A stretch of DNA of 64,000 nucleotides. It comes from a virus. The stretch's first letter is position 1. The number at the start of each line of letters is the position of its first letter. The stretch spans positions 92,009 through 156,008 of IMG/VR virus record IMGVR_UViG_3300037478_000708; one strand, 5' to 3'. Of this stretch, positions 4,288 to 57,230 are shown in pieces. A model generated the notes under the pieces. That model was given only the letters and a program-made list of their open reading frames with translations, had not been told where the DNA came from and made no database searches. Both the position numbers and the translations under genes were made by a program.

Positions 4288-4307
4288 CCAGTGACACGCT
4301 GTCACTG
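4288..4307. repeat. Dispersed palindrome copy 1 (CCAGTGACA-CGC-TGTCACTG)
   Basis: Read directly; invariant 15-bp core shared by six copies. Confidence 0.95.
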
Positions 4308-4505
4308 AGCAGGGGGCACCTTGGGAAAGGTGCCGTACCTCCGGCAGACGACGCAGCACGCCGTCTCCGCGGCGACGCGTAGGGTCTCCTGCCGGCGAAC
4401 CGGCCGGACCGCTCTACGCGCGCAGTCCTCGCTGCACACGTACTCCTGCGCGTCGGTGGCCAGGATCGTTACCCAGCGCGTCCGTTGTTGATCGTAGGTC
4501 GGCAC
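4302..4505 (-). CDS. Small Cys-containing hypothetical protein
   Basis: 67 aa with CxxxC and CxxC, fills the gap in a minus-strand operon. Confidence 0.45.
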   Translation of the reverse strand: MPTYDQQRTRWVTILATDAQEYVCSEDCARRAVRPVRRQETLRVAAETACCVVCRRYGTFPKVPPAQ

Positions 4506-4510
4506 GGGGG

Positions 4511-5059
4511 TTACCTCTTCAGCCGGGCGGAGAGCCCGTCGAGCCAGGCGATATCCGCGGCCGTCTGCGGATTACCGACCACGAGCCCGACGCGGCGCCA
4601 GCGGTTGTTGCCGAGGTACCTCATCTCGATCACCCACGTCTCGCGTATGGTGGCACCGAACGCGTTCTGCGCATCGACCCAGCCGTTCACGACCCAGGTG
4701 CCGTCTCCGAGGTTGAGGGCGCTCTCGCTCGGCTTCTGGTACTCGCCACCGCCGAACCAGCCGGCCGATCCGAAGTCGGCCGTCGACGGCGAGCGCAGCG
4801 CGCTCGTCACGAAGTCCTGCGCCATGACCCACGCGTCGACTGCATCGACCGTGCTGGGCTTCGCCTTGGGCTTCGGTTTCGGTTTGGGCGCCTCGGTCTC
4901 CTTCGCGCTTGCGGCGAAGCTCTTGCTCTCGGTCGTCGTCTCGCTCGCGGCGAGACCCTTGCCGGTCGATACGCGCGGCGTGTCTTCGTCGAAGCCGAGT
5001 GCGATCCCGAGGAGCAGTCCGGCGAGCACGACGATGCACATAAGCGTTCGTAACTTCAT
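4511..5059 (-). CDS. Membrane-anchored hypothetical protein
   Basis: N-terminal hydrophobic helix (MKLRTLMCIVVLAGLLLGIALG), PK linker, LRSPSTADF...VDAQNAFGA domain. Confidence 0.7.
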   Translation of the reverse strand: MKLRTLMCIVVLAGLLLGIALGFDEDTPRVSTGKGLAASETTTESKSFAASAKETEAPKPKPKPKAKPSTVDAVDAWVMAQDFVTSALRSPSTADFGSAGWFGGGEYQKPSESALNLGDGTWVVNGWVDAQNAFGATIRETWVIEMRYLGNNRWRRVGLVVGNPQTAADIAWLDGLSARLKR

Positions 5060-5397
5060 GGTCTTTGAGTAGGGGGTCGCGTTTCGTCGAAATTGACCGG
5101 ACCGCGATCCGCGTTCCGGACGTGGTAGTTGGGGTCGTCGGGGGGCGCCGGGATCCGAACGTTGGGCGCCTGCGCCCCGCCGATCCGAACGGACGTGAGC
5201 TTGTCGTTCGGGGAGGCTGCCCGGACGGCGCGGTGATACGCCGAAACCGTCGACCGACGAACGTTGCCCCCGCAGACCGGGCACCTGACGGGAGACGCGC
5301 CGCGCGTGCCCAGACAGGCGGATCCGTGGTGCGGAACCCGAACGCGATAGAACGCTCGGCAATCCTCGCACCGGCCGACGGAGTTGATCTTGCTCAT
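5056..5397 (-). CDS. Zn-ribbon hypothetical protein
   Basis: CEDC...CPVC; coupled to neighbours. Confidence 0.55.
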   Translation of the reverse strand: MSKINSVGRCEDCRAFYRVRVPHHGSACLGTRGASPVRCPVCGGNVRRSTVSAYHRAVRAASPNDKLTSVRIGGAQAPNVRIPAPPDDPNYHVRNADRGPVNFDETRPPTQRP

Positions 5398-7448
5398 GCT
5401 TCACCGACCTGCCGGCGGTACTTGCGAGCCATCTTGACGGCCGCCGCCCACTGCTTGTCCGACAGCAGTCCGCGCGACTCGATCTGCGCGGCCAGGGAGT
5501 GACCGAACTCGCCGTCGAGCTTGTTGAAGCCCATGCCGTTGATCTCCTGCGCCCTGTCGGGATCCATCGAGGCGAGTTGGACCAGCGCCCGAGCGGCGTG
5601 CTCCTCGACGGCGTTCGCGGCCGAGCGGAACTTGCCGCTGACCTGCAGCTCGCGGCCGTCGTAGGCGGAGCCCAACGAGCGCTTGACGCTCGCGACCGCC
5701 TGCTCGGCCTGCTCCGCGGCTTGCCGCGCGACCTCTGCGTTGCGGGCCTCGACCTCGGTCAGGACGGCGGCCGACTGCTCCGCGGCGCGCGCGAGCGCTT
5801 CCGCGGGCGACGCGCCAACGTAGTCGGCCTCGACCGCGCTGGCTTCGACGCTGGCCTCGATGATGCGCTGCTTCTCGGTGAGCAGCTCGACGACGCGGGC
5901 GTCGACGGCGTGACGCGCGACGAGCCGCTTGACGACGACGCCGCGGTCTTGGCCGATCCGGCACACGCGGTCTTCCGCTTGTTGGTTCAGCGCAGGAGTC
6001 CAGTTCAGATCGACCATGAGCAGGTGGCTCGCCTTGGTCAGCGTCACGCCCACGCCCATCGCGCCGATCGTTCCGGCGACGCCCTTCAGCTCGCCGGCCT
6101 GGAAGCGCTCGACGATCCGGCCGCGCTCGTCGAGGGCGGTCTCGCCCGTGATGACCGCCCACCCTTCGCGCTGGCGCAGCGCTTCGACGGGAGCGGTGTG
6201 AGCGGAGAAGACGACCAGCGGCTCGTCCGCCTCTTCGTACTCCTCGACCAGCTCGAGCATGGCCGGGATCTTGGCCGTGGCCAGCGCCGCGCGGGCGCGC
6301 GAGAGCTGCTCGAAGGCGGCCCCGGTGATCTTGGTCGCCGCGACGTCCGCGTCCGCGTCGTTCAGGTCGATGCCGCTCTCGGCCAGGGTCTCGAGCACGG
6401 CGTCGCACAGCTTGCGGGTCTTCGCGTCGAGATCATTGACCTCGATGTCCTGACGGACCTTGGTCGGCAGCTCGGGCAGCACCTCGAGCCGACGGCGGTG
6501 CAGCATGACCTTGCGCAGGACGTCGGGGACCTCCTCGCTCGGCTGACCCCAGTCGTAGCCGTACTGCCCCTTGCGGCCGTCGAACAGCCGCACGAAGTTG
6601 TACCAGTTGCCGAAGGCGGCTTCCGCGAGCCCGGCGGCCTTGAGGACGTGCCACAGCTCCGGCGGGCGGTTCAGGAGCGGCGTGCCGGTGATGAGCCACA
6701 CGCGACCCTGGCTCGCGCTCACCTGCTCGCGAAGCCCCTGCCAGCGCGCGGTGCGCTTGGCCCGGGGGTTCTTCAAGAGGTGCGCTTCGTCGGCCATCAT
6801 GACCATGCCGACCGGCGGCATGCCCGGGATCTCTTCGGGGTCCGGCATCACGCCGTAGGTCGCGATGACGACCTCACCCGCGACCGGCCAACGGAACTGC
6901 CGGCGCGACGCCACGACGGCCGGGGACAGGTCGGGGCGCCACCGGCGGACCTCACCCTCCCACGCGAAGCGCACCGCGCCCGGCACGATGACCAGAGCAG
7001 CGGCGTTGTCGGGCAGTGCGAGGAGCGCCTGAACGGTCTTGCCGAGACCCATCTCGTCGGTGAGGAGCGCGCTCATGCGCGGGGCGATCCACTCGACGCC
7101 CGTGCGCTGGTAGGGGTAGAGCGCTTCGCCGCGCTCGGCCAGGGCCACGTCGACCTTGGCGAGACGTTCGCGGCCGGCGGAGAGGAGCGCGGTCGCCTCC
7201 GCGGCCTGCTCGCGCAGACGCTCGGCGACGGCACGGTCGACCTCGACCGGGAGCCCCGCGTCCGTGAGGCCCGCGAGGATCTGCGGCACGGCGTCGACCG
7301 GCGCGCGGTTGGCCTTCTCCGCCGGCACGAAGCGCGCGCCGTTGGAGAAGCAGACGTCCCGGTAGGCGCCGAAGCGGTCGCCGCCGAGGTAGGCGGTGAG
7401 CTTGAGGGTGACCGTTTCGCCGGTCGGATCGAGAGTGAGCTGAATCAT
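5394..7448 (-). CDS. SNF2-family (SMARCAL1/HARP-like) helicase
   Basis: DEMGLGKT, DEAH, TGTP..N, WTPA...QAEDRVCRIGQ. Confidence 0.9.
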   Translation of the reverse strand: MIQLTLDPTGETVTLKLTAYLGGDRFGAYRDVCFSNGARFVPAEKANRAPVDAVPQILAGLTDAGLPVEVDRAVAERLREQAAEATALLSAGRERLAKVDVALAERGEALYPYQRTGVEWIAPRMSALLTDEMGLGKTVQALLALPDNAAALVIVPGAVRFAWEGEVRRWRPDLSPAVVASRRQFRWPVAGEVVIATYGVMPDPEEIPGMPPVGMVMMADEAHLLKNPRAKRTARWQGLREQVSASQGRVWLITGTPLLNRPPELWHVLKAAGLAEAAFGNWYNFVRLFDGRKGQYGYDWGQPSEEVPDVLRKVMLHRRRLEVLPELPTKVRQDIEVNDLDAKTRKLCDAVLETLAESGIDLNDADADVAATKITGAAFEQLSRARAALATAKIPAMLELVEEYEEADEPLVVFSAHTAPVEALRQREGWAVITGETALDERGRIVERFQAGELKGVAGTIGAMGVGVTLTKASHLLMVDLNWTPALNQQAEDRVCRIGQDRGVVVKRLVARHAVDARVVELLTEKQRIIEASVEASAVEADYVGASPAEALARAAEQSAAVLTEVEARNAEVARQAAEQAEQAVASVKRSLGSAYDGRELQVSGKFRSAANAVEEHAARALVQLASMDPDRAQEINGMGFNKLDGEFGHSLAAQIESRGLLSDKQWAAAVKMARKYRRQVGEA

Positions 7449-7472
7449 GGAAGGTGTCTCCTGACTCTCTCC

Positions 7473-7501
7473 CTATCGACGTTCGGGCAGTCCCGCGTGA
7501 A
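7473..7501 (-). promoter_or_regulatory. sigma28-like promoter variant TTCACG-N15-GTCGATAG
   Basis: Upstream of the SNF2 gene RBS (AGGAG). Confidence 0.5.
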
Positions 7502-7678
7502 GTCGATCGGCGGAAATCGCGAGATTCCTCGCCGTCAGCGGGAAGAGCTTTCCCTGCGCGAAAGAGGCAGAGCCGCAGTCAAGTCCACCGGGGCGGAGAT
7601 GGAGGGAGGGAGAGATGACCCCCCGGTCTGACCGGGTTTTCACCGGTTCGGAGCATGCTGCGACTCTGCCAGAAAGGT

Positions 7679-7752
7679 TGGTGGATCGGACGGGGATCGA
7701 ACCCGTTCGAGGGGTGTCCAAGCTCCCCGCGGACTCGCCAGAGACCCGGCCC
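7679..7752 (-). tRNA. Atypical tRNA-like RNA (G3:U70/A73 Ala-type acceptor, UGG in the anticodon position)
   Basis: 74 nt; acceptor GGGCCGG/CCGATCC plus ACCA; perfect T-arm ACGGG-TTCGATC-CCCGT; D-arm and anticodon stem degenerate. Confidence 0.65.
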
Positions 7753-7762
7753 ACCGAGAGCG

Positions 7763-8626
7763 CTAGTTGCGGCTCTCGTTGAACGCGAGAGCGGCGGTGC
7801 CCTCGCGCTCGTCTTCGACGAGCTTGCCCACCTCGAAGCCGTAGGCGTCGGTGATGACGCGCGGGAAGCCCTTCACGCCGCGCTCCATGAGACGCGGGCT
7901 GCTCCACGTCTTCGCGACCTCGGTGACCGCGTTGACGAGCGACCAGAGGTTGCGCGGCCCGAACGCCTCGTGGTACGGGTTCTCCTCGTCGAGGTACCCG
8001 CGGTACACCGCGTCGATCTTGCCGAGCTGACCCCACGCGAACGCGTTGCGACGCGCACCCTCCATGAGGAGACGATCGACGCGTTCGTCGGTGACCTCTT
8101 CGCCGAAGAGGAACTCGAGCAGGCGCTTGGCGTCCGTGGCCTGCTGCGACCAGACCTCCATGCCCTCGGAGATCCCCTGCTCCATGCGCTCGACGTTGCC
8201 GGAGGTCGTCTTGAAGCCGAAGAGGAAGTCGCCGACGATCATGCCGTTCGCGCAGACCGCGACGCGCTCCCCGTGCACGCCGTACAGACGCATGCGCTGC
8301 ATGTTGGAGTGGCGGAAGCCGACCTCCGGCGTGATCCCACCGGAGCCCGGCAGGTCGGGCATCGACGGCGCGCTCGCCGGGTCGAAGCGCAGGAAGCCGT
8401 AGATGTCGTGGCCGTCGTCGCTCGTGCAGAAGCTCTCGCTCTCCACCCGCAGACCGATTCTCTTCGCGGCCGACTCGATCTCCTCGATCAGCTCGAGGTG
8501 TGGGATGGGCTTCCACCGGCTGCCGGCGCGATCGTCCTTGCGCTGCACGCGCAACTCCTCGACGGTCGGGACGGCGTAGTCGCGCAGGGCGGCGCGCGTG
8601 ACCATGTTCTTGCTCGGATACAGCAT
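7763..8626 (-). CDS. DUF932-like protein
   Basis: WKPIPH, GFRHSN...G.RVAVCANG, NLWSLVNAVTE motifs. Confidence 0.7.
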   Translation of the reverse strand: MLYPSKNMVTRAALRDYAVPTVEELRVQRKDDRAGSRWKPIPHLELIEEIESAAKRIGLRVESESFCTSDDGHDIYGFLRFDPASAPSMPDLPGSGGITPEVGFRHSNMQRMRLYGVHGERVAVCANGMIVGDFLFGFKTTSGNVERMEQGISEGMEVWSQQATDAKRLLEFLFGEEVTDERVDRLLMEGARRNAFAWGQLGKIDAVYRGYLDEENPYHEAFGPRNLWSLVNAVTEVAKTWSSPRLMERGVKGFPRVITDAYGFEVGKLVEDEREGTAALAFNESRN

Positions 8627-8850
8627 CGGTCTCTCCGTTGGTGTCGGGTTCGTGAGGGCCGGATTAGCTCCGGCCGCGCCTTGCTTTCACTCAACCCTAC
8701 CGAGCCGCTGGAGCGCGTGCGGGGCAAATCTTGAGAAAACCCGCTCCCAGTCGGCAGAAATCCCGCTCGTCCGCCGACCGCGGGTCGGTGCGCGGGGTAA
8801 GCTCCGGGTGTCCGCAAGGAACCCCGATCTTGCATCCAAGGAGTCCTGTA

Positions 8851-9276
8851 ATGGCGCTCGACTACAGCAACCCCCAGGTCAGAGAGACCGCCGACCTGTA
8901 CTCTCAGGCCCTTCGGGCGGAGCGGGAGTTCCGCTGGGAGGATGCGATCGGGCTGTACCAGCAGTGCGCCGACGCCTATGAAGCTCTCCCTCGGGAAGCG
9001 AAGAAGCCGACCAGGGTGGAGTTCGCCGTGTTCCTGATGGGCGGCGGCGTGAGCGGTCTCGGATCCCGCGCGTGCGAGCGAGCGCTGCGTCTCATTGGGA
9101 TCGAAGCCGATCCGGACGTGCTCCGTGACCTGCATGAGGACTGGAAGCAACGAGCCAGGGATCCGTACCTGCCGTCAATGTCGGATGAGCTGCGTAGGCG
9201 CGTGCAGGGGAAGTGGCGGGAGGCCGTCGTCGCGCTCGAGGCTCGTCACCCGTTCCTGAAGAAGAGGGCGCGCTGA
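8851..9276 (+). CDS. Hypothetical helical (TPR-like) protein
   Basis: AAGGAG RBS before ATG 8851; first gene of the rightward early arm. Confidence 0.55.
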   Translation: MALDYSNPQVRETADLYSQALRAEREFRWEDAIGLYQQCADAYEALPREAKKPTRVEFAVFLMGGGVSGLGSRACERALRLIGIEADPDVLRDLHEDWKQRARDPYLPSMSDELRRRVQGKWREAVVALEARHPFLKKRAR

Positions 9277-9307
9277 TGGAGGTCGAGGCAGGACGATCCG
9301 AGATCGG

Positions 9308-9337
9308 CTAAAGTTCGGATGGCGTCTCCGCCGACAA
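9308..9337 (+). promoter_or_regulatory. sigma28-like promoter CTAAAG-N16-GCCGACAA
   Basis: Closest match to the TAAA...GCCGATAA consensus; upstream of 9380. Confidence 0.7.
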
Positions 9338-9379
9338 GGGAGAGGACAGGGCTTCGGCCCACAACGGAGGACTACAGGC

Positions 9380-10906
9380 ATGGCGAAGGACAACTGGTTC
9401 GCGGTCGACCGCAAGGGCATGGCGCAGGTGCTCGCCCGACGGTCCAAGGCCGCCGCGATCTTCGAGCTGATCTCGAACGCGTGGGACGCGCCGGGTGTGA
9501 CGGAGGTCAACGTGTACCTGCGCGCGGTCGAGGGCCGAGCGCTCGTCGACCTCTCGGTCGTGGACAACTCGCCTGAAGGCTTCCTCGATCTGGAGGAGGC
9601 CCGCACGCTCTTCGCGCCGAGCCGCAAGAAGAGCGACCCGACGCAGCGCGGGCGCTTCAACCTCGGCGAGAAGCTCTTCCTCGCACTCTGCACCGAAGCG
9701 CGCATCACGAGCATGCGCGGCTCGTTGATCTTCTCGGAGGACGGCAGCGTCAGCCGCTCGCGTCAGTTCCGCGAGATCGGCACCGAAGTCTCCGCGCGCT
9801 TGCGCATGACGCGGGCGGAGCTGGCGGAAGCCGACGGTGAGCTGAGCAACCTCGTCAGCCCCGCAGGCATCGTCACGCGCATCGCCATGAGGTTCGGCGA
9901 CGGGGTGCAGGACGTCGACGTGACGCAGCTCGCGCCCGTCCGGCCGGAGGTCGTCTTCACGGCCGCCCTGCCGACCGAGCTGGCCGGCGCAGACGGAGAG
10001 CTTCGGCCGACCGTCCGCCAGACCGAGGTACAGGTCTGGCGTGCCGACGTCGGTCGGCTCTACGAGATGGGCATCCCGGTCGTGGAGATCGAGGGCTCGC
10101 TCTCGTTCAACGTGATGCAGAAGATCCCGCTCACGATCGACCGCGAGAACGTCAAGCCCGCCTTCCTGCGACGCGTGCGCGTCGAGGCGCTCAACGCCCG
10201 GCCGGCGCTCGTGCGCGAGAAGAACGAGGCGGAAGAGGTGTGGGTCACCGAAGCCCTGGGCTCGAGCAACCCGCGGCCGACCTCCGACCTGATCGAGTAC
10301 GTCATGGACCTTCGCTTCGGCAAGAAGCGGGTCTCGTACGACCCGAGCGACGTCGAGGGTTCGCAGCTCGCCATGAGCAAGGGCTACACGGTCGTCTCGG
10401 GCGGAGCGCTCCCGCGCGAGGTCTGGACCAACGTTCGGGAGTCGGAAGCGATCAAGCCGGCCGGACAGGTCACGCCGTCGAACCGTGTGCAGTTCAGCGC
10501 GACGGGCAAGGACGTCACGGTCGACCCCGCGAAGGTGCCGGGAGCGCCGGAGGTCATCGAAGCCTTCCGGCGTATCGGCGAGATGCTGCTCGGCTTCCCG
10601 GGGGACCTGCGCGTCGACCTCCTGAACGATCCGCGCAACTACGGTGCGTGCTACGGCAAGCGCATGCTGCACCTGAACCTACGCCGCCTCGGCCGCGCCT
10701 GGTTCCGGACCGCGCTCGACGACGGGCGTCTCGGCAAGGACCACCTCAAGCTGCTCGTTCACGAGCTGGGCCACGACTACGCCGAGAGCCACCTCGACGA
10801 GGGCTTCCACAAGTCGCAGACCGAGCTGGGCGTGGTGCTCGCGCTGCTCGTGGCCGAGCACGGGCCGGACCTGCTCCAGCTCGAGCTGTCCGAGGTGTGG
10901 CCGTGA
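9380..10906 (+). CDS. GHKL (HATPase_c) ATPase with C-terminal HExxH zincin-like motif
   Basis: ELISNAWDA, VVDNSPEG, GRFNLGEK; C-terminal LVHELGHD...H. Confidence 0.75.
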   Translation: MAKDNWFAVDRKGMAQVLARRSKAAAIFELISNAWDAPGVTEVNVYLRAVEGRALVDLSVVDNSPEGFLDLEEARTLFAPSRKKSDPTQRGRFNLGEKLFLALCTEARITSMRGSLIFSEDGSVSRSRQFREIGTEVSARLRMTRAELAEADGELSNLVSPAGIVTRIAMRFGDGVQDVDVTQLAPVRPEVVFTAALPTELAGADGELRPTVRQTEVQVWRADVGRLYEMGIPVVEIEGSLSFNVMQKIPLTIDRENVKPAFLRRVRVEALNARPALVREKNEAEEVWVTEALGSSNPRPTSDLIEYVMDLRFGKKRVSYDPSDVEGSQLAMSKGYTVVSGGALPREVWTNVRESEAIKPAGQVTPSNRVQFSATGKDVTVDPAKVPGAPEVIEAFRRIGEMLLGFPGDLRVDLLNDPRNYGACYGKRMLHLNLRRLGRAWFRTALDDGRLGKDHLKLLVHELGHDYAESHLDEGFHKSQTELGVVLALLVAEHGPDLLQLELSEVWP

Positions 10907-11040
10907 CGGTGCGCCCCGTCTTCGCGTGGTACGACCTGTGGGTCGGTGCCTTCTACGACCGCGCCAAGCGTCGGCTGTACGTCTTGCCCCTGCCGTGCCT
11001 CGGGCTCGTCATCGACTTTAGAGGAGGACGATCAACATGA
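10903..11040 (+). CDS. Small hypothetical phage protein
   Basis: FAWYDLWVGAFYD; GTGA/ATGA coupling. Confidence 0.6.
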   Translation: MTVRPVFAWYDLWVGAFYDRAKRRLYVLPLPCLGLVIDFRGGRST

Positions 11041-11258
11041 ACATGCGTGAAGAAGAACTCGCGGCGCTCGAAGCCCACCGTGCCCAGGTCGAAGAGGCGT
11101 GCGAACAGATCGATCGCGCTGTCGCAGAGATCGAGGCGTCCGCCGGTCGCATCGAGACCGCCGGCAACCCCGAGTTAGCTCAGCGCCTCCGGTTACGTGC
11201 GGACGTGCTACGCGGGAAGCAGAGGGAGCTGCGCGATGGGATCCGCTCGCCGGGCTAA
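11037..11258 (+). CDS. Small coiled-coil protein
   Basis: GGAGG RBS, coupled start. Confidence 0.55.
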   Translation: MNMREEELAALEAHRAQVEEACEQIDRAVAEIEASAGRIETAGNPELAQRLRLRADVLRGKQRELRDGIRSPG

Positions 11259-11784
11259 GGAACAGCGTCGCAAGGCGCGCAAAGAGAAGCAGGCCGTGAA
11301 GCGCGAGCGCGTCTGCGGAGAGTGCCGCGCGTGCTGCACGGTGCTCAGCATCCCCGAGGTCGACACGCCCGCGGGCACGCCCTGCCAGCACGAGTGCGAC
11401 AAGGGCTGCGCCATCTACCGGGTGCGTCCGAAGCGCTGTCAGGAGTTCTCCTGCGGTTGGCTCCACGGTGTCGGCCGCTCTGCGGATCGCCCCGACAAGG
11501 CGGGCTGGTTCGTGTCGGTGGAGCGACAGACGTCGCGGCTCTTCGACGTCGTTGGCGGCGCGAACGCCTCGAACACGCTCCTCGTGGTCCGGGCGTTCCG
11601 TTCGGGCAGCGTGGACACGCCGGAGTTCCGTGCGCTCCTGCGGGGATGGGTCGAGCGAGGCAGCGCGGTGCTCGTACTTGAGCGGAACGTGGTCGACGGG
11701 GCTTCGTGGCTATACGGCCCGCGCTTCCCCAAAGGCGTTCAGATCCCGACGCGAGACATCTCCGGCGTGCAACCGAGGACGTGA
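11236..11784 (+). CDS. YkgJ-like CxxCxxCC cysteine-cluster protein
   Basis: CGECRACC...C.H....CAIY..RP..C..F.C. Confidence 0.75.
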   Translation: MGSARRAKEQRRKARKEKQAVKRERVCGECRACCTVLSIPEVDTPAGTPCQHECDKGCAIYRVRPKRCQEFSCGWLHGVGRSADRPDKAGWFVSVERQTSRLFDVVGGANASNTLLVVRAFRSGSVDTPEFRALLRGWVERGSAVLVLERNVVDGASWLYGPRFPKGVQIPTRDISGVQPRT

Positions 11785-12017
11785 TGGCAGAGTTCGTGTA
11801 CCTGCAAGGCGCGGAGGACGTGCGTTCCGCCGGCAGCGCGATGAGGTCTGCGGCCGAGCAGATGGCCCTCGCCGCGTCCGCCCTGAACGAAACGTTGCAG
11901 CACGATCGAATGCTCCGCGAGGAGGCGGACCGGATTCGGCACGATCAGATGGAGAGCTTGGTGACGCGCTTCGAGCGCGCGGTCGAACGTCTGTGCGACC
12001 TGCGGGACAAGCAATGA
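11784..12017 (+). CDS. Hypothetical protein
   Basis: Coupled (TGATG); GAEDVRSAG motif, helical. Confidence 0.55.
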   Translation: MAEFVYLQGAEDVRSAGSAMRSAAEQMALAASALNETLQHDRMLREEADRIRHDQMESLVTRFERAVERLCDLRDKQ

Positions 12018-12253
12018 ACGAGAGCAACGACAAGGCCGCGGTGTGCCCGTGCGGCAAAGCCGGTCCGTTCACGCCGTTCCAATACTGCGACTCCTGCGGT
12101 CGCCAGTATCAGGGGCGGGGTCACTGGGGCGACATCGCGTCGGACCGGCGCGTCGACGAGTACCGTGAGCGCTACGTCAGCGACGAGCCGACGCACAAGC
12201 TCGGGGACTATGGCGATCCGGATGATCCCGAGTTCCGTGGGGGTTGGAACTGA
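12014..12253 (+). CDS. Small Zn-finger hypothetical protein
   Basis: CPC...CDSC; ATGA coupling. Confidence 0.5.
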   Translation: MNESNDKAAVCPCGKAGPFTPFQYCDSCGRQYQGRGHWGDIASDRRVDEYRERYVSDEPTHKLGDYGDPDDPEFRGGWN

Positions 12254-12459
12254 TGCCCAAGCGGAAGCTGAGGGTCACGGTCGTCTCGTGCAACGACTTC
12301 CCCGAGCGCGTTATGCGCAGCGAGGAGAAGGCGGAGGCGTGGGTCCGGGAGCAGAACGAGTCCGAGAGGCAGCGGATGGCGGATGAGGACAACGGCGTTC
12401 GGCGCTCCGGGATGCCGCGGCGCTACTACCACTGCCACACGTTCGAGCTTGAGGACTGA
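12253..12459 (+). CDS. Hypothetical protein
   Basis: TGATG coupling. Confidence 0.5.
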   Translation: MPKRKLRVTVVSCNDFPERVMRSEEKAEAWVREQNESERQRMADEDNGVRRSGMPRRYYHCHTFELED

Positions 12460-12485
12460 GGCCCGCGGGATTCGGTCCGGTTTCG

Positions 12486-12515
12486 CTCAAGTGATGCGCA
12501 GGCGGCGGCCGATGA
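12486..12515 (+). promoter_or_regulatory. sigma28-like promoter CTCAAG-N16-GCCGATGA
   Basis: Promoter family member upstream of 12537. Confidence 0.7.
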
Positions 12516-12536
12516 GGAGGGCGTAGGAAAACACCA

Positions 12537-13265
12537 ATGAGCGAGAACCTCGCCGAATACCGGGACGTCTTGAGCCGCCGCCTTGCCAGCGTGCGCGAGA
12601 AAGGCGCGCTGCACGACAAGCTCCGCGACAGCCTGCGGGATGCGCTCGCGGGCGAGTTGAAGCTGTCCACGTCGCCCCCGTCCGTCGTCGACGTGCTGGC
12701 GGCCGAGTACGAAGGTCGGTACTGGCGCACGGCGCTTTCGCTGATGCAGGCGGAGGAGAACCTGCGTCGGGAGCGTCCGCGGGTGTACGCGGGCTACGCG
12801 TCCGCCGAGGCGTACCGGGATCAGTGCCGCGAGGAACGCGACGCTGCGCTTGGGGTTCTCGCTCCGCTCCGCGCGGAGTACGCGCGGCGTCCGTGGCTGC
12901 GGTACTTCCTCGTTCCGGGCGGCCACGTGCACCGCGGCATGAGCTGCTCGACCTGCTACCCGACGACCCACTACGGGTGGCTTCCTGAGCTGTCCGGGTG
13001 CGACGAAGCCGCGATGGTCGAGGTGTACGGAACGGCTGCCTGCACGATCTGCTTCCCCGACGCGCCGACGCTGCCCGGGTGGCTAGCCGCAGAGAAGCGC
13101 AACGCGGCGGAGGCCGCTGCGAAGGCGGCAAAGACCTGCCCTGGCTCAGGACGGCCCGCCGTCGGCGGTCGCCGTTACCAATCGTGCCCCGAGTGCCAGA
13201 CGGCGCAGTTCGTGACGGCCAATGGCTACGGGAAGTTCCGCAAGCACAACCGCCCCGAGGAATGA
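12537..13265 (+). CDS. Zn-binding hypothetical phage protein
   Basis: HVH..M.CSTC...WLP.LSG...CTICFPDAP and a second CxxC/H finger. Confidence 0.7.
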   Translation: MSENLAEYRDVLSRRLASVREKGALHDKLRDSLRDALAGELKLSTSPPSVVDVLAAEYEGRYWRTALSLMQAEENLRRERPRVYAGYASAEAYRDQCREERDAALGVLAPLRAEYARRPWLRYFLVPGGHVHRGMSCSTCYPTTHYGWLPELSGCDEAAMVEVYGTAACTICFPDAPTLPGWLAAEKRNAAEAAAKAAKTCPGSGRPAVGGRRYQSCPECQTAQFVTANGYGKFRKHNRPEE

Positions 13266-14731: not shown

Positions 14732-14759
14732 CGACCCGCTCCAGATTCTCCGGGTACGT

Positions 14760-21204: not shown

Positions 21205-21225
21205 CCGGTGACAGCGTGTCACTGG
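21205..21225. repeat. Dispersed palindrome copy 2 (CCGGTGACA-GCG-TGTCACTGG)
   Basis: Read directly. Confidence 0.95.
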
Positions 21226-26714: not shown

Positions 26715-26735
26715 CCAGTGACAGCGTGTCACCGG
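26715..26735. repeat. Dispersed palindrome copy 3 (CCAGTGACA-GCG-TGTCACCGG)
   Basis: Read directly. Confidence 0.95.
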
Positions 26736-28605: not shown

Positions 28606-29538
28606 GTGAAGACGAAACTACCAGTCCCGTCTCCAGACGGCGTGCCGCCGTGCTTCGGTGTTCAGTACCGCGAGGCCGACAAGGGCTGCGCTTGCTGCCG
28701 AGTGCGCGCACACTGCGCACCGAGAGCGCAACGCTGGCGCGAGAAGCGCTCGCTCTCCGAGCTGCTCGCCGATGCCGACGCGCGGTTGCGTCACGCGCGT
28801 TCCGACGAAACGCTGCAAGAGATCTACGACCGGCTGCACCGCGAGATCTTCGGGACGATCTCACGCCGTTCCTCGAGTGAGGCGAACGAGGATCTCTTCG
28901 CGCGGTTGTTCGCCTTCCTGCGCCGTGAGGAGATCGACCTAGCGACCTACGTCGCCGGTAACATGTGGGCGATGAAGCCCTGGGTCGAGTCGAATCCGCG
29001 CATCGGGTTCCAACCCAACCACCTGTCCGGCGAGCGCGCCCTGCGGCGCTACTACGCGTACCTCGGCCGGCAGAGACGGCGCTTCCGGCAGCAACGGCAC
29101 ACGGGCGAGACGGGCGGCACGCTGACGGCCAACATCCGACAGCAGATCTTCCTGGGGGAGTACGCGGTGGGGCTGGAGTACGTGCGGACGTACGTGGCCG
29201 AGGGAGACGCGAGCTGGGCCGCCGCGATCGAAGAGGCGCAGCCGTCGGCGGATTGGCGCGCGGTCGAATGCGGCCCCTCGGGAGGCAAGCGCTACCACGA
29301 GCTGTGCACGATCTTCGGCACGCATCGGCTGTCGGCGGAGAAGCAGCGGGCCACGCTCAAGGCGGCCTGCGTCGTGGCCGAGAGCTACGAGCACGACCTC
29401 TCGCACCGCGTCGGCGTCCGCGGTGCGTTCACCTGGGCCGACTTCGCCGTGCTCATCGCGCGGCTCTACCCGCTCGACACGCCCAGTGACACGCTGTCAC
29501 TGGCCGAGGTGCAGGGGGTCGCCTGGCATGGTTGCTGA
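28606..29538 (+). CDS. Hypothetical replication-module protein with N-terminal CFG Zn finger
   Basis: CFG......C.CC....C; overlaps the helicase start. Confidence 0.6.
   Translation: MKTKLPVPSPDGVPPCFGVQYREADKGCACCRVRAHCAPRAQRWREKRSLSELLADADARLRHARSDETLQEIYDRLHREIFGTISRRSSSEANEDLFARLFAFLRREEIDLATYVAGNMWAMKPWVESNPRIGFQPNHLSGERALRRYYAYLGRQRRRFRQQRHTGETGGTLTANIRQQIFLGEYAVGLEYVRTYVAEGDASWAAAIEEAQPSADWRAVECGPSGGKRYHELCTIFGTHRLSAEKQRATLKAACVVAESYEHDLSHRVGVRGAFTWADFAVLIARLYPLDTPSDTLSLAEVQGVAWHGC
29483..29503. repeat. Dispersed palindrome copy 4 (CCAGTGACA-CGC-TGTCACTGG), inside a CDS
   Basis: Read directly; encodes PSDTLSL. Confidence 0.95.
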
Positions 29539-40083: not shown

Positions 40084-41391
40084 ATGGTGACCACGAGCAC
40101 GCGCAAGCGTTCGTCGAAGAAGACGTCCGCGAAGAAGAAGAAGACGTCCAAGAAGACGACCGCCAAGAAGAAGACGGCTCGGAAGGCTGCTCCCGAGCCC
40201 GCGGCCAAGAAGGCCGCCGTCGAGCCCGCGGCCAAGAGGGCCAAGAAGACGGCCAAGAAGACGGCCAAGAAGACGGCCAAGAAGGCGAGCGGGTCGCGCG
40301 CGTCGGTCGTGCCGCCGACCATGCCGAACGGAAGTCCGTTCGCGGCACACGAGATCAACGGCATTCAGGTCGTCACGGCCGACGGTCGCAAGCCGAGCCG
40401 CTACGCGGCGACGGGCTTCGTGGAAGGCGATCGCATCCGCAGGCTGAAGTTCATTCAGGCTCTTCGTAGCAGCGGCGTGGGCGACATCGCGGAGCTGACG
40501 AAGGGCATCCGTACGAGCGGCGTGATCGAGCCCCTGGTCGTGCGGCCGGCGGGCAACGGCAAGGACTTCGAGCTGATCGCCGGAGAGCGGCGCCTCGAGG
40601 CCGCGCAGAAGGTCGGTGGCAAGGCGTGGCAGCACGTGCCTGTCATCATCCGCACGGACCTCGACGACGACGACAAGGCGACGGCCGTCGCCATCGCCGA
40701 GAACTCCGAAGACGGTCGGTCGAATCTCAACATCATCGACATCGGGCGGCAGGCCGAGCGCTTTCAGGAGAAGGGCTGGACCGCTGACCGCATGGCGAAG
40801 GAGATGGGGCTGCACGTGCGCAAGGTGCGCCGCGCGATCCAGCTCGTGAGCGAGGTCTCGCCGTCGGTGCAGGAGAAGGTGCAGGCGGGTGAGCTGCCGA
40901 TGACGGCCGCGCTGGAGCTGACGCAGCTTCCGGAGGACGTTCGCGAGAAGATCGAGGACCGTCTCGGTCCGGACACGACCGCCTCGGAGATCCGGCGCAT
41001 CCGCAAGAAGATCGAGGCGGACGCGGCGAAGGAGAAGGCCGAGAAGGGCGAAGACATCGAGTCCCGCCGCAAGAGAGGCGGCGAGGCCAAGACCCGGCAG
41101 GCGACGGCCTGGAAGACGCCCTCCGAGAAGAAGATGCAGCTCGGTCAGATGGCCATGTCGCTGCACGGGGCCGACGGGGACGAGATCGGGACGTACGACT
41201 ACCACGAGCTGCGCGGCGGCCTGGCGGCGCTCCTGTGGGATCGGGGCGACCTCGAGTCGCCCTTCCTCCCGACCATCTACGAGGAGGAGATGGAGAACCC
41301 GGCGCAGGAGAAGAAGCTCAACGCGCTGTTCAACGAGATCGTGGCCAACGAGGCCGCGCGGCACGAGAAACGCCTGGCCGCGGGGGCGTAA
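40084..41391 (+). CDS. parB: ParB/Spo0J-like CTPase with histone H1-like N-terminal tail
   Basis: GVIEPLVVR, LIAGERRLEAA, AIAEN..R.NL, HTH (TADRMAKEMGLHVRKVRR). Confidence 0.85.
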   Translation: MVTTSTRKRSSKKTSAKKKKTSKKTTAKKKTARKAAPEPAAKKAAVEPAAKRAKKTAKKTAKKTAKKASGSRASVVPPTMPNGSPFAAHEINGIQVVTADGRKPSRYAATGFVEGDRIRRLKFIQALRSSGVGDIAELTKGIRTSGVIEPLVVRPAGNGKDFELIAGERRLEAAQKVGGKAWQHVPVIIRTDLDDDDKATAVAIAENSEDGRSNLNIIDIGRQAERFQEKGWTADRMAKEMGLHVRKVRRAIQLVSEVSPSVQEKVQAGELPMTAALELTQLPEDVREKIEDRLGPDTTASEIRRIRKKIEADAAKEKAEKGEDIESRRKRGGEAKTRQATAWKTPSEKKMQLGQMAMSLHGADGDEIGTYDYHELRGGLAALLWDRGDLESPFLPTIYEEEMENPAQEKKLNALFNEIVANEAARHEKRLAAGA

Positions 41392-41455: not shown

Positions 41456-41476
41456 CCGGTGACAGCGTGTCACTGG
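41456..41476. repeat. Dispersed palindrome copy 5 (CCGGTGACA-GCG-TGTCACTGG)
   Basis: 65 bp after the parB stop, 2 bp before ATG 41479. Confidence 0.95.
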
Positions 41477-47002: not shown

Positions 47003-48931
47003 ATGCGAATCGGCCCGGTTATCCTCCACAACTTCGGACCGTTCGAGCACGTCGAGTTCGACCTCTCGAAGCCGGGGCTCACCGGGATCGAGGGTGTCAT
47101 GCACGACCGTCCCGGTTGCACGAGCAACGGAAGCGGCAAGAGCATGCTCATAGAGGGCGTGTCGTGGGTCTGCTTCGATCGCGTGCTGCGGGAGCGCTAC
47201 GGCAAGGACGATCTGATCCGCCTCCAGTTCAAGGCGAATGGCGGCAACAAGCTCGCGCTGCGAACGGATGGGAACGGGTCTCCGATCCGTCCGTCCGATG
47301 GGTGCTACGGGATCGTGCACGTCGTTGGAGGTTCGGTGGACATTCGCATCGAGCGCTACCGAGGGCATGCCGTCGAAGGCAACAAGGTCAAGCTGTTCAT
47401 CGGGGGCAAGGACGTCACGCGAGGGCGTGATTCGATGACGAACCTCGCGATCGAGCAGACGCTCGGGATGGACTTCCGCGCGTTCATCAGCTCGATCGCC
47501 TTCGGTGCGCGGGAGGACGTGAAGGGCTTCTTCGCCGCGACGGACTCCGAACGTAAGGCCACGCTCGACAAGCTCCTGGGCATGGAGGTCTACGCGCAGG
47601 CGCAGAAACGGGCGCGCGTCCGGCTGGCCGCCGTGGCCGAGAAGCTCAGCGCGAGCGAGCGGAAGAGGGCCTCGTTGGAAGCGCGGTGTCAGGATCAGCA
47701 AAAGACCCTCGACGAGCTGCTCGGGCAGGACGATGGGGAGGTCGAGCTGCGTTGGAAGAAGGCACGCGCCAGCGTGGTGCTGGCAGAGCGGCAGCTCGAG
47801 CGCCTGCGGGAAGAGGTCGTGGAGGCTGAGGCGGACGTCGCGCAGGAGGAGCAAGCCGCGGAAGTCATCCGCGAAGCCCACGCGAAGGCCGTCCGTGCGC
47901 ACAAGGAACGCCGTCGGGAGATCGAGGCGGAGCGGCGCGCGAAGGAGGATCTCCGGGCGCAGCACCGTTCCGATGCGCGGGTTGGAGAGCAGGATCTCGC
48001 CACCTGGCAGAGTCTCGGGGGTAAGAACTGCCCCACCTGCTTGCAGGTCGTGCCGAAGACGCTCGCGTTACGTGCGCAACGAGCGGCCTTGGCCAAGAGG
48101 GACACTGCGCAGGATGCCGCGGAGGCCGCCGCGAAGGATGCGCAGGCGCTAGAGGAGGCGCTGAGTCGGCTTGGGGAGCCGCCGGAGCCGCCGCAGTTGT
48201 GGCTCTTGGAAGGCGCGAAGGAGGTTCTCCGCCAACGGCGCGAGGCTGTGGCCGCGCAGGAGCGCGACGTGGCCGTTGCGCAGTCCGAAGCTCGTGCGGC
48301 TGCCCGCGAGAAGGAGCGCGCCGCGCAGCAACGCGAGGCGATTCAGGCGCGCTTGAGCGAGATGCTCGCGGAGATCGAGAAGCTGACCGCGGACTCCGCG
48401 CAGGACGCGCTGGAGGCCGACCGCCTGGAATTCTGGGTCGATGGGTTCGGAGCAGGTGGTCTGCGGAGCTTCCTGATCGAGGCGGAGATTCCGGAGATCA
48501 ACCGTGCGGCGTCCCGTTACGCGCAGCGGCTCCTGGGTCCGGGGGCCACGGTTCAGATGTCGGCCACGCGTCAGCTCAAGGGTGGCGACACGCGGGAGGA
48601 GCTGGACGTGCGCGCCACGATTCCGGGTTGCACGGTCACCTATCCGGGCGCGAGCAAGGGGCAAAAGAGGCGCTTGGACCTCTCGTTGCTACTGGCCTTC
48701 CGAGAGATCGTCGGCCGGCGCTACGCGAAGAAGTTCGCGCAGCTCTTCGCCGACGAGCTGTTCGACGGCTTGGACGATGCGGGAGAGGACTCCGTTGTGG
48801 AGCTGCTGCGCGAGATCTCCGCGACCTGTCCGGTAGCCCTCGTGACGCACTCGGATGCGCTCAAGGCGTCGGCTGACCGGTTGCTCGTGGTGCACCACAA
48901 GAACGGCGTCGCGACCCTGGAGGACGCATGA
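47003..48931 (+). CDS. sbcC: SbcC/Rad50/gp46-like ATPase
   Basis: NF..F, SNGSGKS, coiled coils with CPTC Zn hook, SKGQKRR signature, DELFDGLD, VTH. Confidence 0.9.
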   Translation: MRIGPVILHNFGPFEHVEFDLSKPGLTGIEGVMHDRPGCTSNGSGKSMLIEGVSWVCFDRVLRERYGKDDLIRLQFKANGGNKLALRTDGNGSPIRPSDGCYGIVHVVGGSVDIRIERYRGHAVEGNKVKLFIGGKDVTRGRDSMTNLAIEQTLGMDFRAFISSIAFGAREDVKGFFAATDSERKATLDKLLGMEVYAQAQKRARVRLAAVAEKLSASERKRASLEARCQDQQKTLDELLGQDDGEVELRWKKARASVVLAERQLERLREEVVEAEADVAQEEQAAEVIREAHAKAVRAHKERRREIEAERRAKEDLRAQHRSDARVGEQDLATWQSLGGKNCPTCLQVVPKTLALRAQRAALAKRDTAQDAAEAAAKDAQALEEALSRLGEPPEPPQLWLLEGAKEVLRQRREAVAAQERDVAVAQSEARAAAREKERAAQQREAIQARLSEMLAEIEKLTADSAQDALEADRLEFWVDGFGAGGLRSFLIEAEIPEINRAASRYAQRLLGPGATVQMSATRQLKGGDTREELDVRATIPGCTVTYPGASKGQKRRLDLSLLLAFREIVGRRYAKKFAQLFADELFDGLDDAGEDSVVELLREISATCPVALVTHSDALKASADRLLVVHHKNGVATLEDA

Positions 48932-54661: not shown

Positions 54662-54718
54662 AGTGCCCGGTCCGCGCGGAGTATCCTGAGCGCGCCACAC
54701 CCCAAGCGGAGGACGCCC

Positions 54719-56773
54719 GTGCCGGAGAACGAAAACCGAACCGTAAGAGCCCGTCGAGGCGCTCCCGAGCGAAGTGCGCCCACGCAGCCGCATACGGTTC
54801 CGTCTTTCTGGAGGCTGTTCGGCCTCTACCGCCGGCAGACCCGGCCGACCAGCTTCGACTACGGGTACGCCGACGCCGGCAGCGGCTCACCCGCGAGCTG
54901 GGCCGAGCTGTCGAAGCACCTGAGCCTCTCCAGCGACCGCCGTCGCCGCTACGACATCTTCGACGAGATGGATGGCTTCGGCCTGGTCTCAGCGGTGCTG
55001 TCGGTCTACGCGGAAGAGGCGACGCAACCGGACTACGACAAGGGTGTGCGCGTCTGGATCGAGTCCAAGGCCAAGCACATGATCGAGGCGGGCAACGCCT
55101 GTCTCGCGAACTGTCAGATCGAGGATCGGGTCTTCGCCGTGACGCGGCGGACGTGCAAGTACGGCGACGCGTTCCAACGTCTGCTCTACGCGTCGGGCAA
55201 GGGAGTGCTCGGCTGGCGCTACGCGAGTCAGAGCAACATGACCCGCGTGGAGGACAAGTTCGGTCGCCTGGTCGGCTTCAAGGAGGAGGGCGGGGCCTTC
55301 CGTAAGGCGCTGCATCCCAAGGGCACTGATACGAGTTTCCCTTGGGATTACCTGCACTTCCGACTCCTCGGAAAGAACGAGGAGGACGGCTACGGGAGCG
55401 GGCTGTGCGAGCAGTTCTTCCGCGAGTGGCGGTACATGACGCTGACCGAGGATGCGATCCTCATGTACCGGCTGCGCCGGATGCCGGACCGCAACGTCGT
55501 GCTCGTCGACGTCGGCAGCCTCGAGGACCACGAGGCGATGCGCTACGTGAATCAGTGGCGCAAGCGGCTGCGCAAGCATGAGATCGTGGATCCGGCGAGC
55601 GCGACCTACCGCAAGCAGTGGAACCCGATCGGTCCGCTGGAGGATCTCTTCTATCCGATCCGGCAGGACTCGAACACACGCATCGAGACGCTGCAAGGCG
55701 GCGGGAACATCGGCGACATCTACGACCTCGAGCACTTCCGCGACGCCTTCTTTGGTTCGGCCGCCGTGCCCAAGGCGTACTTCGGCTTCGAGGGCGAGAT
55801 CGACGCGAAGGCGACGCTCCAGCAGCAGGACATTCGCTTCGCGCGCACGGCCAAGCGGATCCAGCGAGCGACGATCTATGGAATCCGTCAGTTGCTCGAC
55901 GTGCACTTCACGCTTCTCGGCACGCCGCAGAACAAAGGCAAGTACGATCCGCTGGAGCGCGACAACGAGTACCTCGTGATGATGTCGCCCATCTCCTACC
56001 TCGAGGAGCTGGAGAGGCTCGAACTCGTGCGCATGCGCTACGAGATCGTGCAGACCATGACGGGGTTGAAGAACGACCTGCAGCTCGACGCGCGCATGTG
56101 GGCGGTCTACATCCTCGTGAACTTCGCGCGACTCCCCGATGAGTTGGTGATGCGGCTCATCCAACAGACCGCGGAGAAGCCCGTCGAGGGGCGGGGAGAG
56201 GCGTTCAAGGCATTGCCTCTCGAACAGCAGAAGCAGATCCTCGACAACGATCGCACGGAGCTGTCGATGCTGCGCCCGCTGACGGAAGAGGACAAGCGGT
56301 GGATTCACCTCTGCGTGGCGCAGTCGCCGGGTCTCCAACATCGGATCCGTCGCTTCGAGGAGCTGGCGTCCGACGAGGTGGACTATCTCGCGCGGCAGCA
56401 GATCGACACCTCGCTGCTTCCCGTGGAAGTCGCCGGCAACGGGGACAACTACCTCTTGCAAGACGACTACGAAGAGGAGGCCGCGATCAAGCAGTTGAAC
56501 GAGGACGTTCGCGTTCTCCGCCGCGCCGCGGAGGCTGCGCAGACGATCGAGATTCAGCTCAACGAGGGCCAGGCGGAGGCGACACCGGAACAGATCGAGG
56601 AAGCCATCAGGGCCGCCTCGTCCAAGGCCGCGAAGATCCTCGAGGACCGCAAGAAGCAGAACGCCCCCGACGGCCCGGGTAGGGAACAGACGTCGGAGGG
56701 GGCGCGTCTCGCGGGACAAGCAGCCTCCGGCAAGGCGTACGTTGCGAAGACCACGGGCAAGCTCGGCGGATGA
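54719..56773 (+). CDS. Portal protein (T4 gp20-like)
   Basis: RY..FDEMD, CKYGD.F, HFRL, EDAILMYRL.R.P.R....VDVG, IETLQGG, VPKAY, QDIRFART. Confidence 0.9.
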   Translation: MPENENRTVRARRGAPERSAPTQPHTVPSFWRLFGLYRRQTRPTSFDYGYADAGSGSPASWAELSKHLSLSSDRRRRYDIFDEMDGFGLVSAVLSVYAEEATQPDYDKGVRVWIESKAKHMIEAGNACLANCQIEDRVFAVTRRTCKYGDAFQRLLYASGKGVLGWRYASQSNMTRVEDKFGRLVGFKEEGGAFRKALHPKGTDTSFPWDYLHFRLLGKNEEDGYGSGLCEQFFREWRYMTLTEDAILMYRLRRMPDRNVVLVDVGSLEDHEAMRYVNQWRKRLRKHEIVDPASATYRKQWNPIGPLEDLFYPIRQDSNTRIETLQGGGNIGDIYDLEHFRDAFFGSAAVPKAYFGFEGEIDAKATLQQQDIRFARTAKRIQRATIYGIRQLLDVHFTLLGTPQNKGKYDPLERDNEYLVMMSPISYLEELERLELVRMRYEIVQTMTGLKNDLQLDARMWAVYILVNFARLPDELVMRLIQQTAEKPVEGRGEAFKALPLEQQKQILDNDRTELSMLRPLTEEDKRWIHLCVAQSPGLQHRIRRFEELASDEVDYLARQQIDTSLLPVEVAGNGDNYLLQDDYEEEAAIKQLNEDVRVLRRAAEAAQTIEIQLNEGQAEATPEQIEEAIRAASSKAAKILEDRKKQNAPDGPGREQTSEGARLAGQAASGKAYVAKTTGKLGG

Positions 56774-57216
56774 AGATCAAGATTCCCTACACCGGCGGTC
56801 CGGACAGCGAAGCCCTCGCGGACTGCATCGACTACGCCGCGCAACGGGCCAAGATCACCGACGAGCGCGGACTGCGGTTCCTGACCTTCTTCTTCGAGCG
56901 CCTGGTCGACAACGTGTGCGCCGGCCGCGTGGTCGGGATTCCCGCGGTCGGCAAGTTCGGTCCGTGGCTCGAGGAACGTCAGCTCAGGCTGAAACGCTAC
57001 AACCACGGACTCCCGTTCAACGTTCCCAAGTTCGTGCCGGCGCCGTCCTTCCGTAGGCAGTGCAAGGACACGGCGCCCACGTCGCGGGTGGGGAAGCGGC
57101 TGCTCAACAACCATCGGCTGAGCTACGACAAGGTGAAGTGCGTGAATTCCGCGGCGCCGACGCACGTCACGATGGCCCGCATCCGCGCGTCCATCGACAA
57201 CCAGCTCGGCCAGTGA
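56770..57216 (+). CDS. Divergent HU/IHF-like protein
   Basis: V.AGRVVGIPAVGKF...PKFVPAPSFR pattern. Confidence 0.5.
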   Translation: MKIKIPYTGGPDSEALADCIDYAAQRAKITDERGLRFLTFFFERLVDNVCAGRVVGIPAVGKFGPWLEERQLRLKRYNHGLPFNVPKFVPAPSFRRQCKDTAPTSRVGKRLLNNHRLSYDKVKCVNSAAPTHVTMARIRASIDNQLGQ

Positions 57217-57230
57217 CAGCGTGTCACTGG
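57210..57230. repeat. Dispersed palindrome copy 6 (CCAGTGACA-GCG-TGTCACTGG)
   Basis: Contains the upstream stop codon, ends 5 bp before ATG 57236. Confidence 0.95.

Follow-up and report, generated by a model that had tools for sequence, protein, structure and literature searches.

Which protein reads the short palindrome that recurs throughout this phage genome, and what might it do there? The stretch of DNA analysed here (the window) has a length of 64,000 nucleotides and covers bases 92009-156008 of the phage record IMGVR_UViG_3300037478_000708, which comprises 156,008 bp with a GC content of 66.7 % and is referred to as G000 when the whole record is meant. The window contains six copies of a palindrome with the 15-bp core GTGACAGCGTGTCAC, one of them behind a gene for an orphan ParB protein. 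Taken together, sequence comparisons suggest that this core is probably the specific loading site of the phage's own ParB and thus its equivalent of parS. This reading is supported by four independent lines: bacterial loci of the Cytophagales in which the same core stands beside parA and a ParB-like gene, the presence of a ParB-like protein in every phage bearing the motif, palindromes of relatives that co-vary at orthologous slots, and the association of an arginine of the recognition helix with a guanine of the half-site. The first three of these provide comparative support for the original prediction, in which the repeats had been interpreted as parS-like, though non-canonical, sites serving the orphan ParB.

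All six predicted copies were recovered in the window as exact cores, with the 4:2 split of orientations that had been described (Table 1). In the shuffled window, 0.19 cores are expected, and six were reached in none of 100 shuffles. Tolerating up to two mismatches did not add any site in the window beyond the six exact cores. The 21-bp form CCR...YGG, which had been ascribed to all copies, applies to five of the six, with one flank of the copy at 4288 being TCA. A scan of the full genome, as suggested with the prediction, returned 17 exact copies in G000 (7 forward, 10 reverse), and no variants with one mismatch exist in the whole 156 kb. Each site is built from a 15-bp core with two GTGACA half-sites and 3 bp between them, which lies inside a palindrome of 21-25 bp, and the extended consensus of G000 is the 25-bp palindrome gtCCA-GTGACA-GCG-TGTCAC-TGGac. 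GTGACA-N3-TGTCAC is the only over-represented palindrome of the 6+N+6 type in G000.

The placement of the sites was assessed with a gene call based on third-position GC content, which yielded 168 genes in G000, nearly all on the plus strand. According to this gene call, 15 of the 17 cores are intergenic (P=3e-12). The gaps between sites range from 2.8 to 16.9 kb, with a mean of 9.2 kb and a coefficient of variation of 0.40, and this spacing is more even than expected from uniform placement (P=1.3e-4) or from a random choice among 98 intergenic gaps (P=1e-5). Many copies are located either 0-30 nt past stop codons or 5-8 nt ahead of start codons, the latter distance applying to the ends of four or five cores, and at three of the 17 sites the TGA of the motif itself is the stop codon of the upstream gene. 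Several positional details of the original prediction hold as well, namely a copy behind parB, whose core begins 68 nt after the parB stop, a copy within a coding sequence (CDS) upstream of a DnaB-like gene, and two copies abutting start codons, with the cores at 41459 and 57213 ending 5 and 8 nt before an ATG.

A sigma-70 scan of the window between 20.9 and 30 kb showed no promoter-like site, Rfam reported nothing for the window at the gathering threshold, a megablast search of the window against cultured phages found no match, and the exact site sequence had no match in a literature search. A different element, TGTAGAC(A), is present in ten plus-strand copies in G000, all within the first 90 kb and none in the window. 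Five of these ten copies are within 60 bp of a palindrome, mostly in the interval that separates it from the start of the following gene, and TGTAGAC(A) may be a late-promoter element. The palindrome at 21208 is closely followed by a gene for a small GGDEF-domain protein of 164 amino acids (AA; Pfam E 8e-19).

The candidate reader of the sites belongs to the ParB family. The phage ParB matches Pfam ParB_N with an E-value of 1.1e-14, and its GERR box, which corresponds to the GxxR nucleotide-binding box, is invariant in the 25 family members aligned. A profile of this family, compared with structures in the PDB, matched Noc (7OL9) best (E 1.5e-22), with Noc, Spo0J and ParB structures at E-values of 1e-19 to 1e-22 and a weaker match to the KorB structure 8QA8 (E 6e-6). 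The alignment to 7OL9 extends through the helix-turn-helix (HTH) region. The N terminus consists of an 80-AA low-complexity tail rich in lysine and alanine, and such a lysine-rich tail would suit non-specific DNA binding. A partner ParA was sought with PF13614 in G000, in its relative G055 and in three other phages with the same core (G001, G004, G014) without any match, whereas 14 of 14 control genomes matched. Reading the N-terminal sequence by eye, no LG[KR]GL ParA-binding motif was seen.

Other roles or readers within the ParB_N superfamily were considered and rejected. One ParB class activates thymine dioxygenase and has no DNA-binding domain (PMC13229309). This function was discarded for the phage ParB because no Tet_JBP domain was found in the five of these phages searched and because that class lacks a DNA-binding domain. 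The ParB_N-DNA methyltransferase fusions of G000 (43675-44859 and 47325-48569) were dismissed as readers since they have no HTH, and a match in G001 is confined to the methylase part. Both fusions are located outside the window and are 29 % identical to one another; a third methylase-like gene of G000 is found at 21097-22323. Directly upstream of parB, a bacterial-type RecA is encoded at 38762-39991 of the window (Pfam RecA E 3e-43), and the gene order recA-parB-exonuclease is kept in the relatives G055 and G054.

The relatives of this ParB provide information on how the sites evolve. There are 24 close relatives on contigs of up to 148 kb, and ten were recovered from IMG/VR, with their genomes read whole or to the end of the fragment. 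Relatives with this ParB family contain dispersed, lineage-specific palindromes at orthologous slots, among them the slot behind parB and the one inside a CDS. The prediction had named relatives with this ParB lacking any such repeat, or with the repeat lacking ParB, as findings that would speak against it, and neither was encountered. The closest relative, G055, has a ParB that is 59 % identical and shares 44 proteins with G000 at a mean identity of 57 %, in syntenic order. G055 lacks TGACA-type sites altogether. In their place, CTGGAC-N5-GTCCAG occurs four times, each time in a slot orthologous to a G000 site (Table 1). In the slot inside a CDS, the two phages encode SDTLS (G000) and LDPAS (G055) at the same point of a variable protein tail, each spelling its own palindrome. 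A site next to parB, which is one mark of a ParB/parS system, is present in G000, and the same slot in G055 holds the palindrome of that phage.

Further palindromes were found in other members of the group. G054 has four copies of TTGACA-cgg-TGTCAA, two of which occupy G000 slots, one being the slot of the window site 57213. Sites of the type xT[GA]ACA-N3-TGT[CT]Ax number 40 in G063, 34 in G059 and six in G060. Site density is thus much higher in the closer relatives G063 and G059, and the sites there are often asymmetric. G057 and G058 use the palindrome CCAACA-AWT-TGTTGG, and four copies of TTCCCCGAsTCGGGGAA occur in G062, one of them 230 bp from parB. From this comparison, the array is old and positionally conserved, with a sequence that changes in concert within each genome. 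Concerted change at conserved slots is the pattern expected of co-evolution with one genome-encoded reader, and a conserved host factor or simple hairpins would not give rise to it. The outer arms GTCCAG/CTGGAC of the G000 element reappear in everted form, where they make up the entire G055 palindrome. As separate observations, the phage ParB is represented in G057 (9014-10906) and G058 (6820-8712) by a tandem pair of paralogues that differ in their recognition helices (YAERIRRY and EPMRVRRA), and G000 has two HNH_3 homing-endonuclease genes outside the window, at 7357-7857 and about 86050-86560. The former (NUMOD4+HNH_3) begins 7 nt past a palindrome and is absent from the orthologous G055 slot.

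The same core is also used by phages unrelated to G000. A scan of IMG/VR for the 15-mer gave mostly single matches compatible with chance, plus the multi-copy genomes G001, G014 and G004, and most of the single-copy matches in viral and bacterial collections are likewise at chance level. The 21-bp form was not found in IMG/VR, and a 19-bp form gave nine single, unrelated matches in metagenomes. G001 is a complete genome of 70 kb with 50 % GC and ten sites flanked by ATTYT/ARAAT. G014, a relative of G001 at about 70-78 % nucleotide identity, has 11 TGACA-N3-TGTCA sites with a free spacer, some of which are syntenic with G001 sites. G004 comprises 43 kb with 59 % GC and contains six sites flanked by CGAA/TTCG, again with a free spacer. 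Since the spacers are free in G014 and G004, it is the half-sites that are conserved and not the 3-bp centre.

The proteomes of G001/G014 and G004 share almost nothing with G000, and every phage lineage bearing the motif has a ParB-like protein. In G004, this is a ParB_N protein related to the ParB of the window (E 7e-8). A Pfam search of G001 for ParB_N found no such domain. The proteins encoded at 33710-34471 in G001 and at 12130-13065 in G014 match the ParB-like family of the Cytophagales loci (E 1e-10 to 1e-13), and by this homology both phages encode a ParB-like protein that Pfam misses. ParB-like proteins are the sole DNA-binding family common to all four contexts, that is, G000, G001/G014, G004 and Cytophagales. 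Giant open reading frames are a further feature of these phages: one in G001 (17588-31129, L081; 4513 AA) is essentially unannotated and has two palindromes 42 bp apart near its 5' end, and one in G004 (10363-17946, L082; 2527 AA) has DarB-like and lytic-transglycosylase-like parts.

The bacterial loci resulted from a scan for the 15-mer over one genome per prokaryotic species and were taken from among the matches listed. At least eight loci in Cytophagales carry two to four tandem GTGACA-N3-TGTCAC units with a period of 59-78 bp. Eight of eight arrays adjoin a parA gene (AAA_31/CbiA/ParA, E about 1e-48), which is followed by a gene for a protein of 271-295 AA that has no Pfam match, a DGHNR box and an HTH. 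This arrangement is the classical parA-parB-parS layout, and in two loci (L169 and L221) the first unit overlaps the stop of the ParB-like gene. In four whole Cytophagales genomes of 6-7 Mb, the array copies are the only GTGACA-N3-TGTCAC sites, and in a fifth whole genome searched, a 58-kb contig has four dispersed copies. An hhalign comparison aligned the ParB-like protein of these loci with the phage ParB family at a probability of 91 % and an E-value of 1e-6 over 156 columns, from the GxxR box through the HTH. Rfam reported only spurious miRNA hairpins on a Cytophagales array. We know of no published description of these parA/ParB-like/tandem-palindrome loci, although no search for one was made.

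A relation between recognition helix and half-site points in the same direction. Helices with an arginine at the third position are HVRK in G000, HSRK in G054, SIRK in G001, SERQ in G014 and SSRT in Cytophagales, and they go along with an essentially invariant G at the third half-site position (GTGACA or TTGACA). In the tally of the four phages, 89 of 94 half-sites have this G. Helices without it, namely HPMK (G063), HVSK (G059/G060) and YAER/EPMR (G057/58), go along with a mixture of G and A or with A at this position. The helix arginine is therefore a candidate read-out residue for the half-site G, and due to the few independent lineages this covariation is suggestive only.

A mechanism can be proposed from what the sequences show, namely the sites and where they lie, the fold of ParB and the association of both across genomes. 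A ParB dimer would read the two half-sites via its HTH, close into a clamp dependent on cytidine triphosphate (CTP) and then slide off the site. ParB proteins usually spread over a few kb from their loading site. Since the 17 sites are about 9 kb apart and the largest gap is 16.9 kb, the whole genome is within this spreading range, and clamps sliding a few kb from each of the 17 sites could cover it. Such a coating might serve to organise or condense the phage DNA during replication and packaging. Another option would be a KorB-like long-range control of transcription units, which is considered because the sites sit at gene boundaries. A broader and more tentative proposal, which we regard as possible rather than probable, is that large phages of one clade, which lack a partition ATPase, coat their whole genomes via an orphan ParB CTP clamp loaded from evenly spaced sites about every 9 kb. 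These phages would then encode a chromatin or condensate of their own that marks and organises the DNA for replication, packaging or protection, and the clamp and its sites would co-evolve across lineages.

Several observations weigh against the assignment of the sites to ParB. The eight Cytophagales loci were picked by a motif search, which introduces an ascertainment bias. A reverse search with their ParB-like family in 101 genomes of the order detected 29 more homologues with 30-48 % identity, and the GTGACA core was found at none of these more distant proteins. Several of them have an N3-spaced palindrome of another sequence (GTGCAA, GGGACA, TGGACA, TGGTCA) within the gene or next to it, and their helices differ too, which fits a family of cognate protein-site pairs and in this respect counts in favour of the ParB reading. 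In addition, the Cytophagales units are the tips of longer, unique perfect palindromes with arms of up to 23 bp (L169 6120-6350; L221 5940-6110), and these longer palindromes are not explained by a dimer binding double-stranded DNA. Some units have A-runs and T-runs and resemble bidirectional terminators. The HTH of the G004 protein gave no convincing alignment with the other HTHs. Among the phage relatives, no array was seen in G061, a 16 % fragment, or in G053, which has a distant ParB_N protein only. The 6-5-6 architecture of the G055 palindrome demonstrates correlated turnover and does not identify the reader protein. Lastly, the sites can fold as RNA hairpins with -10 to -14 kcal/mol.

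This last point raises the question of whether the sites are mainly RNA hairpins that act as 3'-end stabilisers, terminators without a U-tract, processing sites or occluders of translation starts. The stems of 9-11 bp, the many copies shortly after stops or before starts, and the long hairpins of the Cytophagales units, some with T-runs, would be in line with this. However, phages ranging from 50 to 67 % GC keep the stem sequence but not that of the loop, the outer pair in G014 includes G-A and C-C mismatches, the sites have no U-tail, and both orientations occur (7 forward, 10 reverse) despite the almost one-way transcription of the genome. As there is also no Rfam family, and the link to parAB and the even spacing are left unexplained, a mainly RNA-based function is distinctly unlikely. 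A secondary effect at the RNA level, for example on genes with an ATG 5-8 nt later, is possible. The sites could also be operators of another DNA-binding protein of the phage in a stoperator-like network, with a 57-AA HTH_58/Mor-like protein (44213-44386) or a Myb-like protein (23409-24116) as readers. This would account for the sites at gene boundaries, several of which abut start codons. Moreover, the concerted turnover needs a genome-encoded reader and names none, and G055 encodes a homologue of the Myb-like protein. Nevertheless, HTH_58, Mor and Myb are missing from the Pfam families of G004, and from those of G001, for which 25 of 36 families were listed. With ParB-like proteins as the only DNA-binding family common to the four contexts, and the Cytophagales core located beside parA/parB-like genes, such an operator network is improbable.

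A conserved nucleoid-associated or regulatory factor of the host, exploited by unrelated phages, would explain why three phage lineages that are unrelated and have next to no proteins in common use the same 15-bp core. These lineages differ widely in GC content (50, 59 and 67 %), though, and in close relatives of G000 the palindromes at orthologous slots have all changed together. In whole Cytophagales genomes, the motif is found beside parAB-like genes only and does not form a regulon, and no literature match for the sequence was found, which makes a host factor very unlikely. The identity of all 17 copies and their intergenic positions could also result from a small mobile palindromic element, similar to repetitive extragenic palindromic (REP) sequences, miniature inverted-repeat transposable elements (MITEs) or the boundary of a homing cassette. 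One copy abuts the HNH/NUMOD4 gene at G000 7357-7857, and genes for HNH-type Zn-ribbon proteins are near sites in G004 and G014. But the slots are conserved in relatives whose palindromes differ in sequence, the second HNH gene of G000 has no nearby site, the Zn-ribbon family is absent from G000, and random insertion does not explain the even spacing. A mobile element is thus extremely unlikely.

Other candidates were rejected outright. Hairpin promoters of the N4 type for a virion RNA polymerase were discarded because the giant proteins of G000, G001 and G004 have no RNA-polymerase match in PHROGs and because the orientation of the sites is independent of the direction of transcription. A sigma-70 promoter with TTGACA/GTGACA as a -35-like element lacks a consistent -10 downstream. 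Readers with a resolvase-type HTH, such as the tandem-HTH protein of G000 (11627-11926) and the serine recombinase of G001, are absent from G014 and G004. The Zn-ribbon/HNH homing-endonuclease family common to G001, G014 and G004 was excluded due to its absence from G000, and HNH genes are not systematically located beside sites.

Table 1. Positions of parB, of the palindrome copies and of the slots shared by G000 and G055. Positions are those of the window unless G000 is stated.
Feature	Position	Core	Strand	Description
Orphan ParB gene (435 AA)	40084..41391		+	Lys/Ala-rich N-terminal tail; ParB_N fold with GERR box; HTH with helix HVRKVRRA; family-specific C-terminal domain
Palindrome copy	4288..4308	4291-4305	-	Flanked by minus-strand genes 3672-4184 and 4511-5041; centre reads CGC on + strand; TCA in one outer flank
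Palindrome copy	21205..21225	21208-21222	+	29 nt past stop of gene 20787-21179; upstream of GGDEF gene 21367-21861
Palindrome copy	26715..26735	26718-26732	+	In 500-nt gap before SNF2/DEAD helicase gene 26928-28514
Palindrome copy	29483..29503	29486	-	Inside CDS 28642-29538; encodes SDTLS, 38 nt before stop
Palindrome copy	41456..41476	41459-41473	+	Between parB and 5'-3' exonuclease gene 41479-42471
Palindrome copy	57210..57230	57213-57227	+	TGA is stop of gene 56770-57216; ATG of gene 57236-58174 8 nt later
Slot shared with G055	G000 32			Between last and first genes of the G000 record
Slot shared with G055	G000 7335			Beside g7 homologue
Slot shared with G055	G000 121494 (window 29486)			Inside homologue of CDS 28642-29538
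Slot shared with G055	G000 133467 (window 41459)			parB-exonuclease gap

Apart from the sites and their neighbours, the window encodes a family-A DNA polymerase (33018-36029) with a domain of the uracil-DNA-glycosylase superfamily fused at its N terminus. Among cultured phages, the SPO1-like phages of Bacillus have the most similar polymerases, with an identity of about 31 %.

CTP clamps of the ParB family are known from chromosome and plasmid partition, where they work with ParA, from nucleoid occlusion by Noc and from the silencing of plasmid genes by KorB. With canonical ParB-parS systems, the phage shares the fold with GERR box and HTH and a palindrome next to parB. The site itself differs from the canonical parS TGTTNCACGTGAAACA, as stated in the original prediction, and nothing in the 156-kb genome matches the latter within three mismatches. 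The resemblance to matS noted at the same time holds for the half-site (GTGAC) and does not go further, as no matS GTGACRNYGTCAC is present in the genome except for one chance match with one mismatch. MatP-matS also differs in that the 13-bp GTGACRNYGTCAC is read by a ribbon-helix-helix protein and has a spacer of 1 nt between its arms, compared to 3 nt in the phage. MatP is not a ParB, and no search for MatP was made.

In Bacillus subtilis, Noc is an orphan ParB paralogue without ParA whose own palindrome, NBS, is dispersed genome-wide, which is also the situation proposed for the phage. Noc uses an amphipathic helix at its N terminus to tether DNA to the membrane. The phage ParB has the 80-AA Lys/Ala-rich tail at this end, and NBS and the phage sites are unrelated in sequence. 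The operators of KorB are likewise dispersed in many copies, with 12 OB sites in the IncP plasmid RK2 and 17 sites in G000, 2.8-16.9 kb apart. KorB is a CTP clamp of the ParB family that uses a short palindrome dispersed in many copies on a mobile replicon and acts at a distance (PMC11790492), and it does not condense DNA in vitro (PMC11790492). KorB works with the ParA protein IncC in partition and with the clamp-locking KorA, and no ParA was found in the phage. The site sequence is also different, and the replicon here is a large phage for which no plasmid lifestyle is evident. Among phages, the linear plasmid-prophage N15 is comparable in that SopB has several separate inverted-repeat sites (IR1-4) on a phage genome rather than a single centromere block (PMC7205306). 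N15 differs by having SopA, by its use of the sites for plasmid partition and by having four sites compared to 17, and even spacing has not been reported for it.

A survey has described many orphan ParB-fold proteins in phages without assigned DNA targets or roles (PMC12704722). For this ParB, a probable DNA target can be assigned across an entire clade of phages; this target is genome-wide, evenly spaced and positionally conserved and whose sequence turns over with the protein. If the sites indeed serve for docking of ParB, this arrangement has not been described for a phage without a partition ATPase. The relatives would also offer a natural specificity series (GTGACA, TTGACA, TTRACA, CCAACA, CTGGAC-N5), with the helix arginine as the candidate read-out residue. 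A counterpart in terms of the site is found in the Cytophagales loci, which have the identical 15-bp core GTGACA-N3-TGTCAC, a ParB-like protein homologous from the GxxR box to the HTH and the same Ser/His-x-Arg start of the helix. They differ by the presence of ParA, by tandem sites beside the genes and by a protein below the detection of Pfam ParB_N. The same 15-bp site is in this way tied to a ParB-like family of Cytophagales partition loci that is too divergent to be detected by Pfam.

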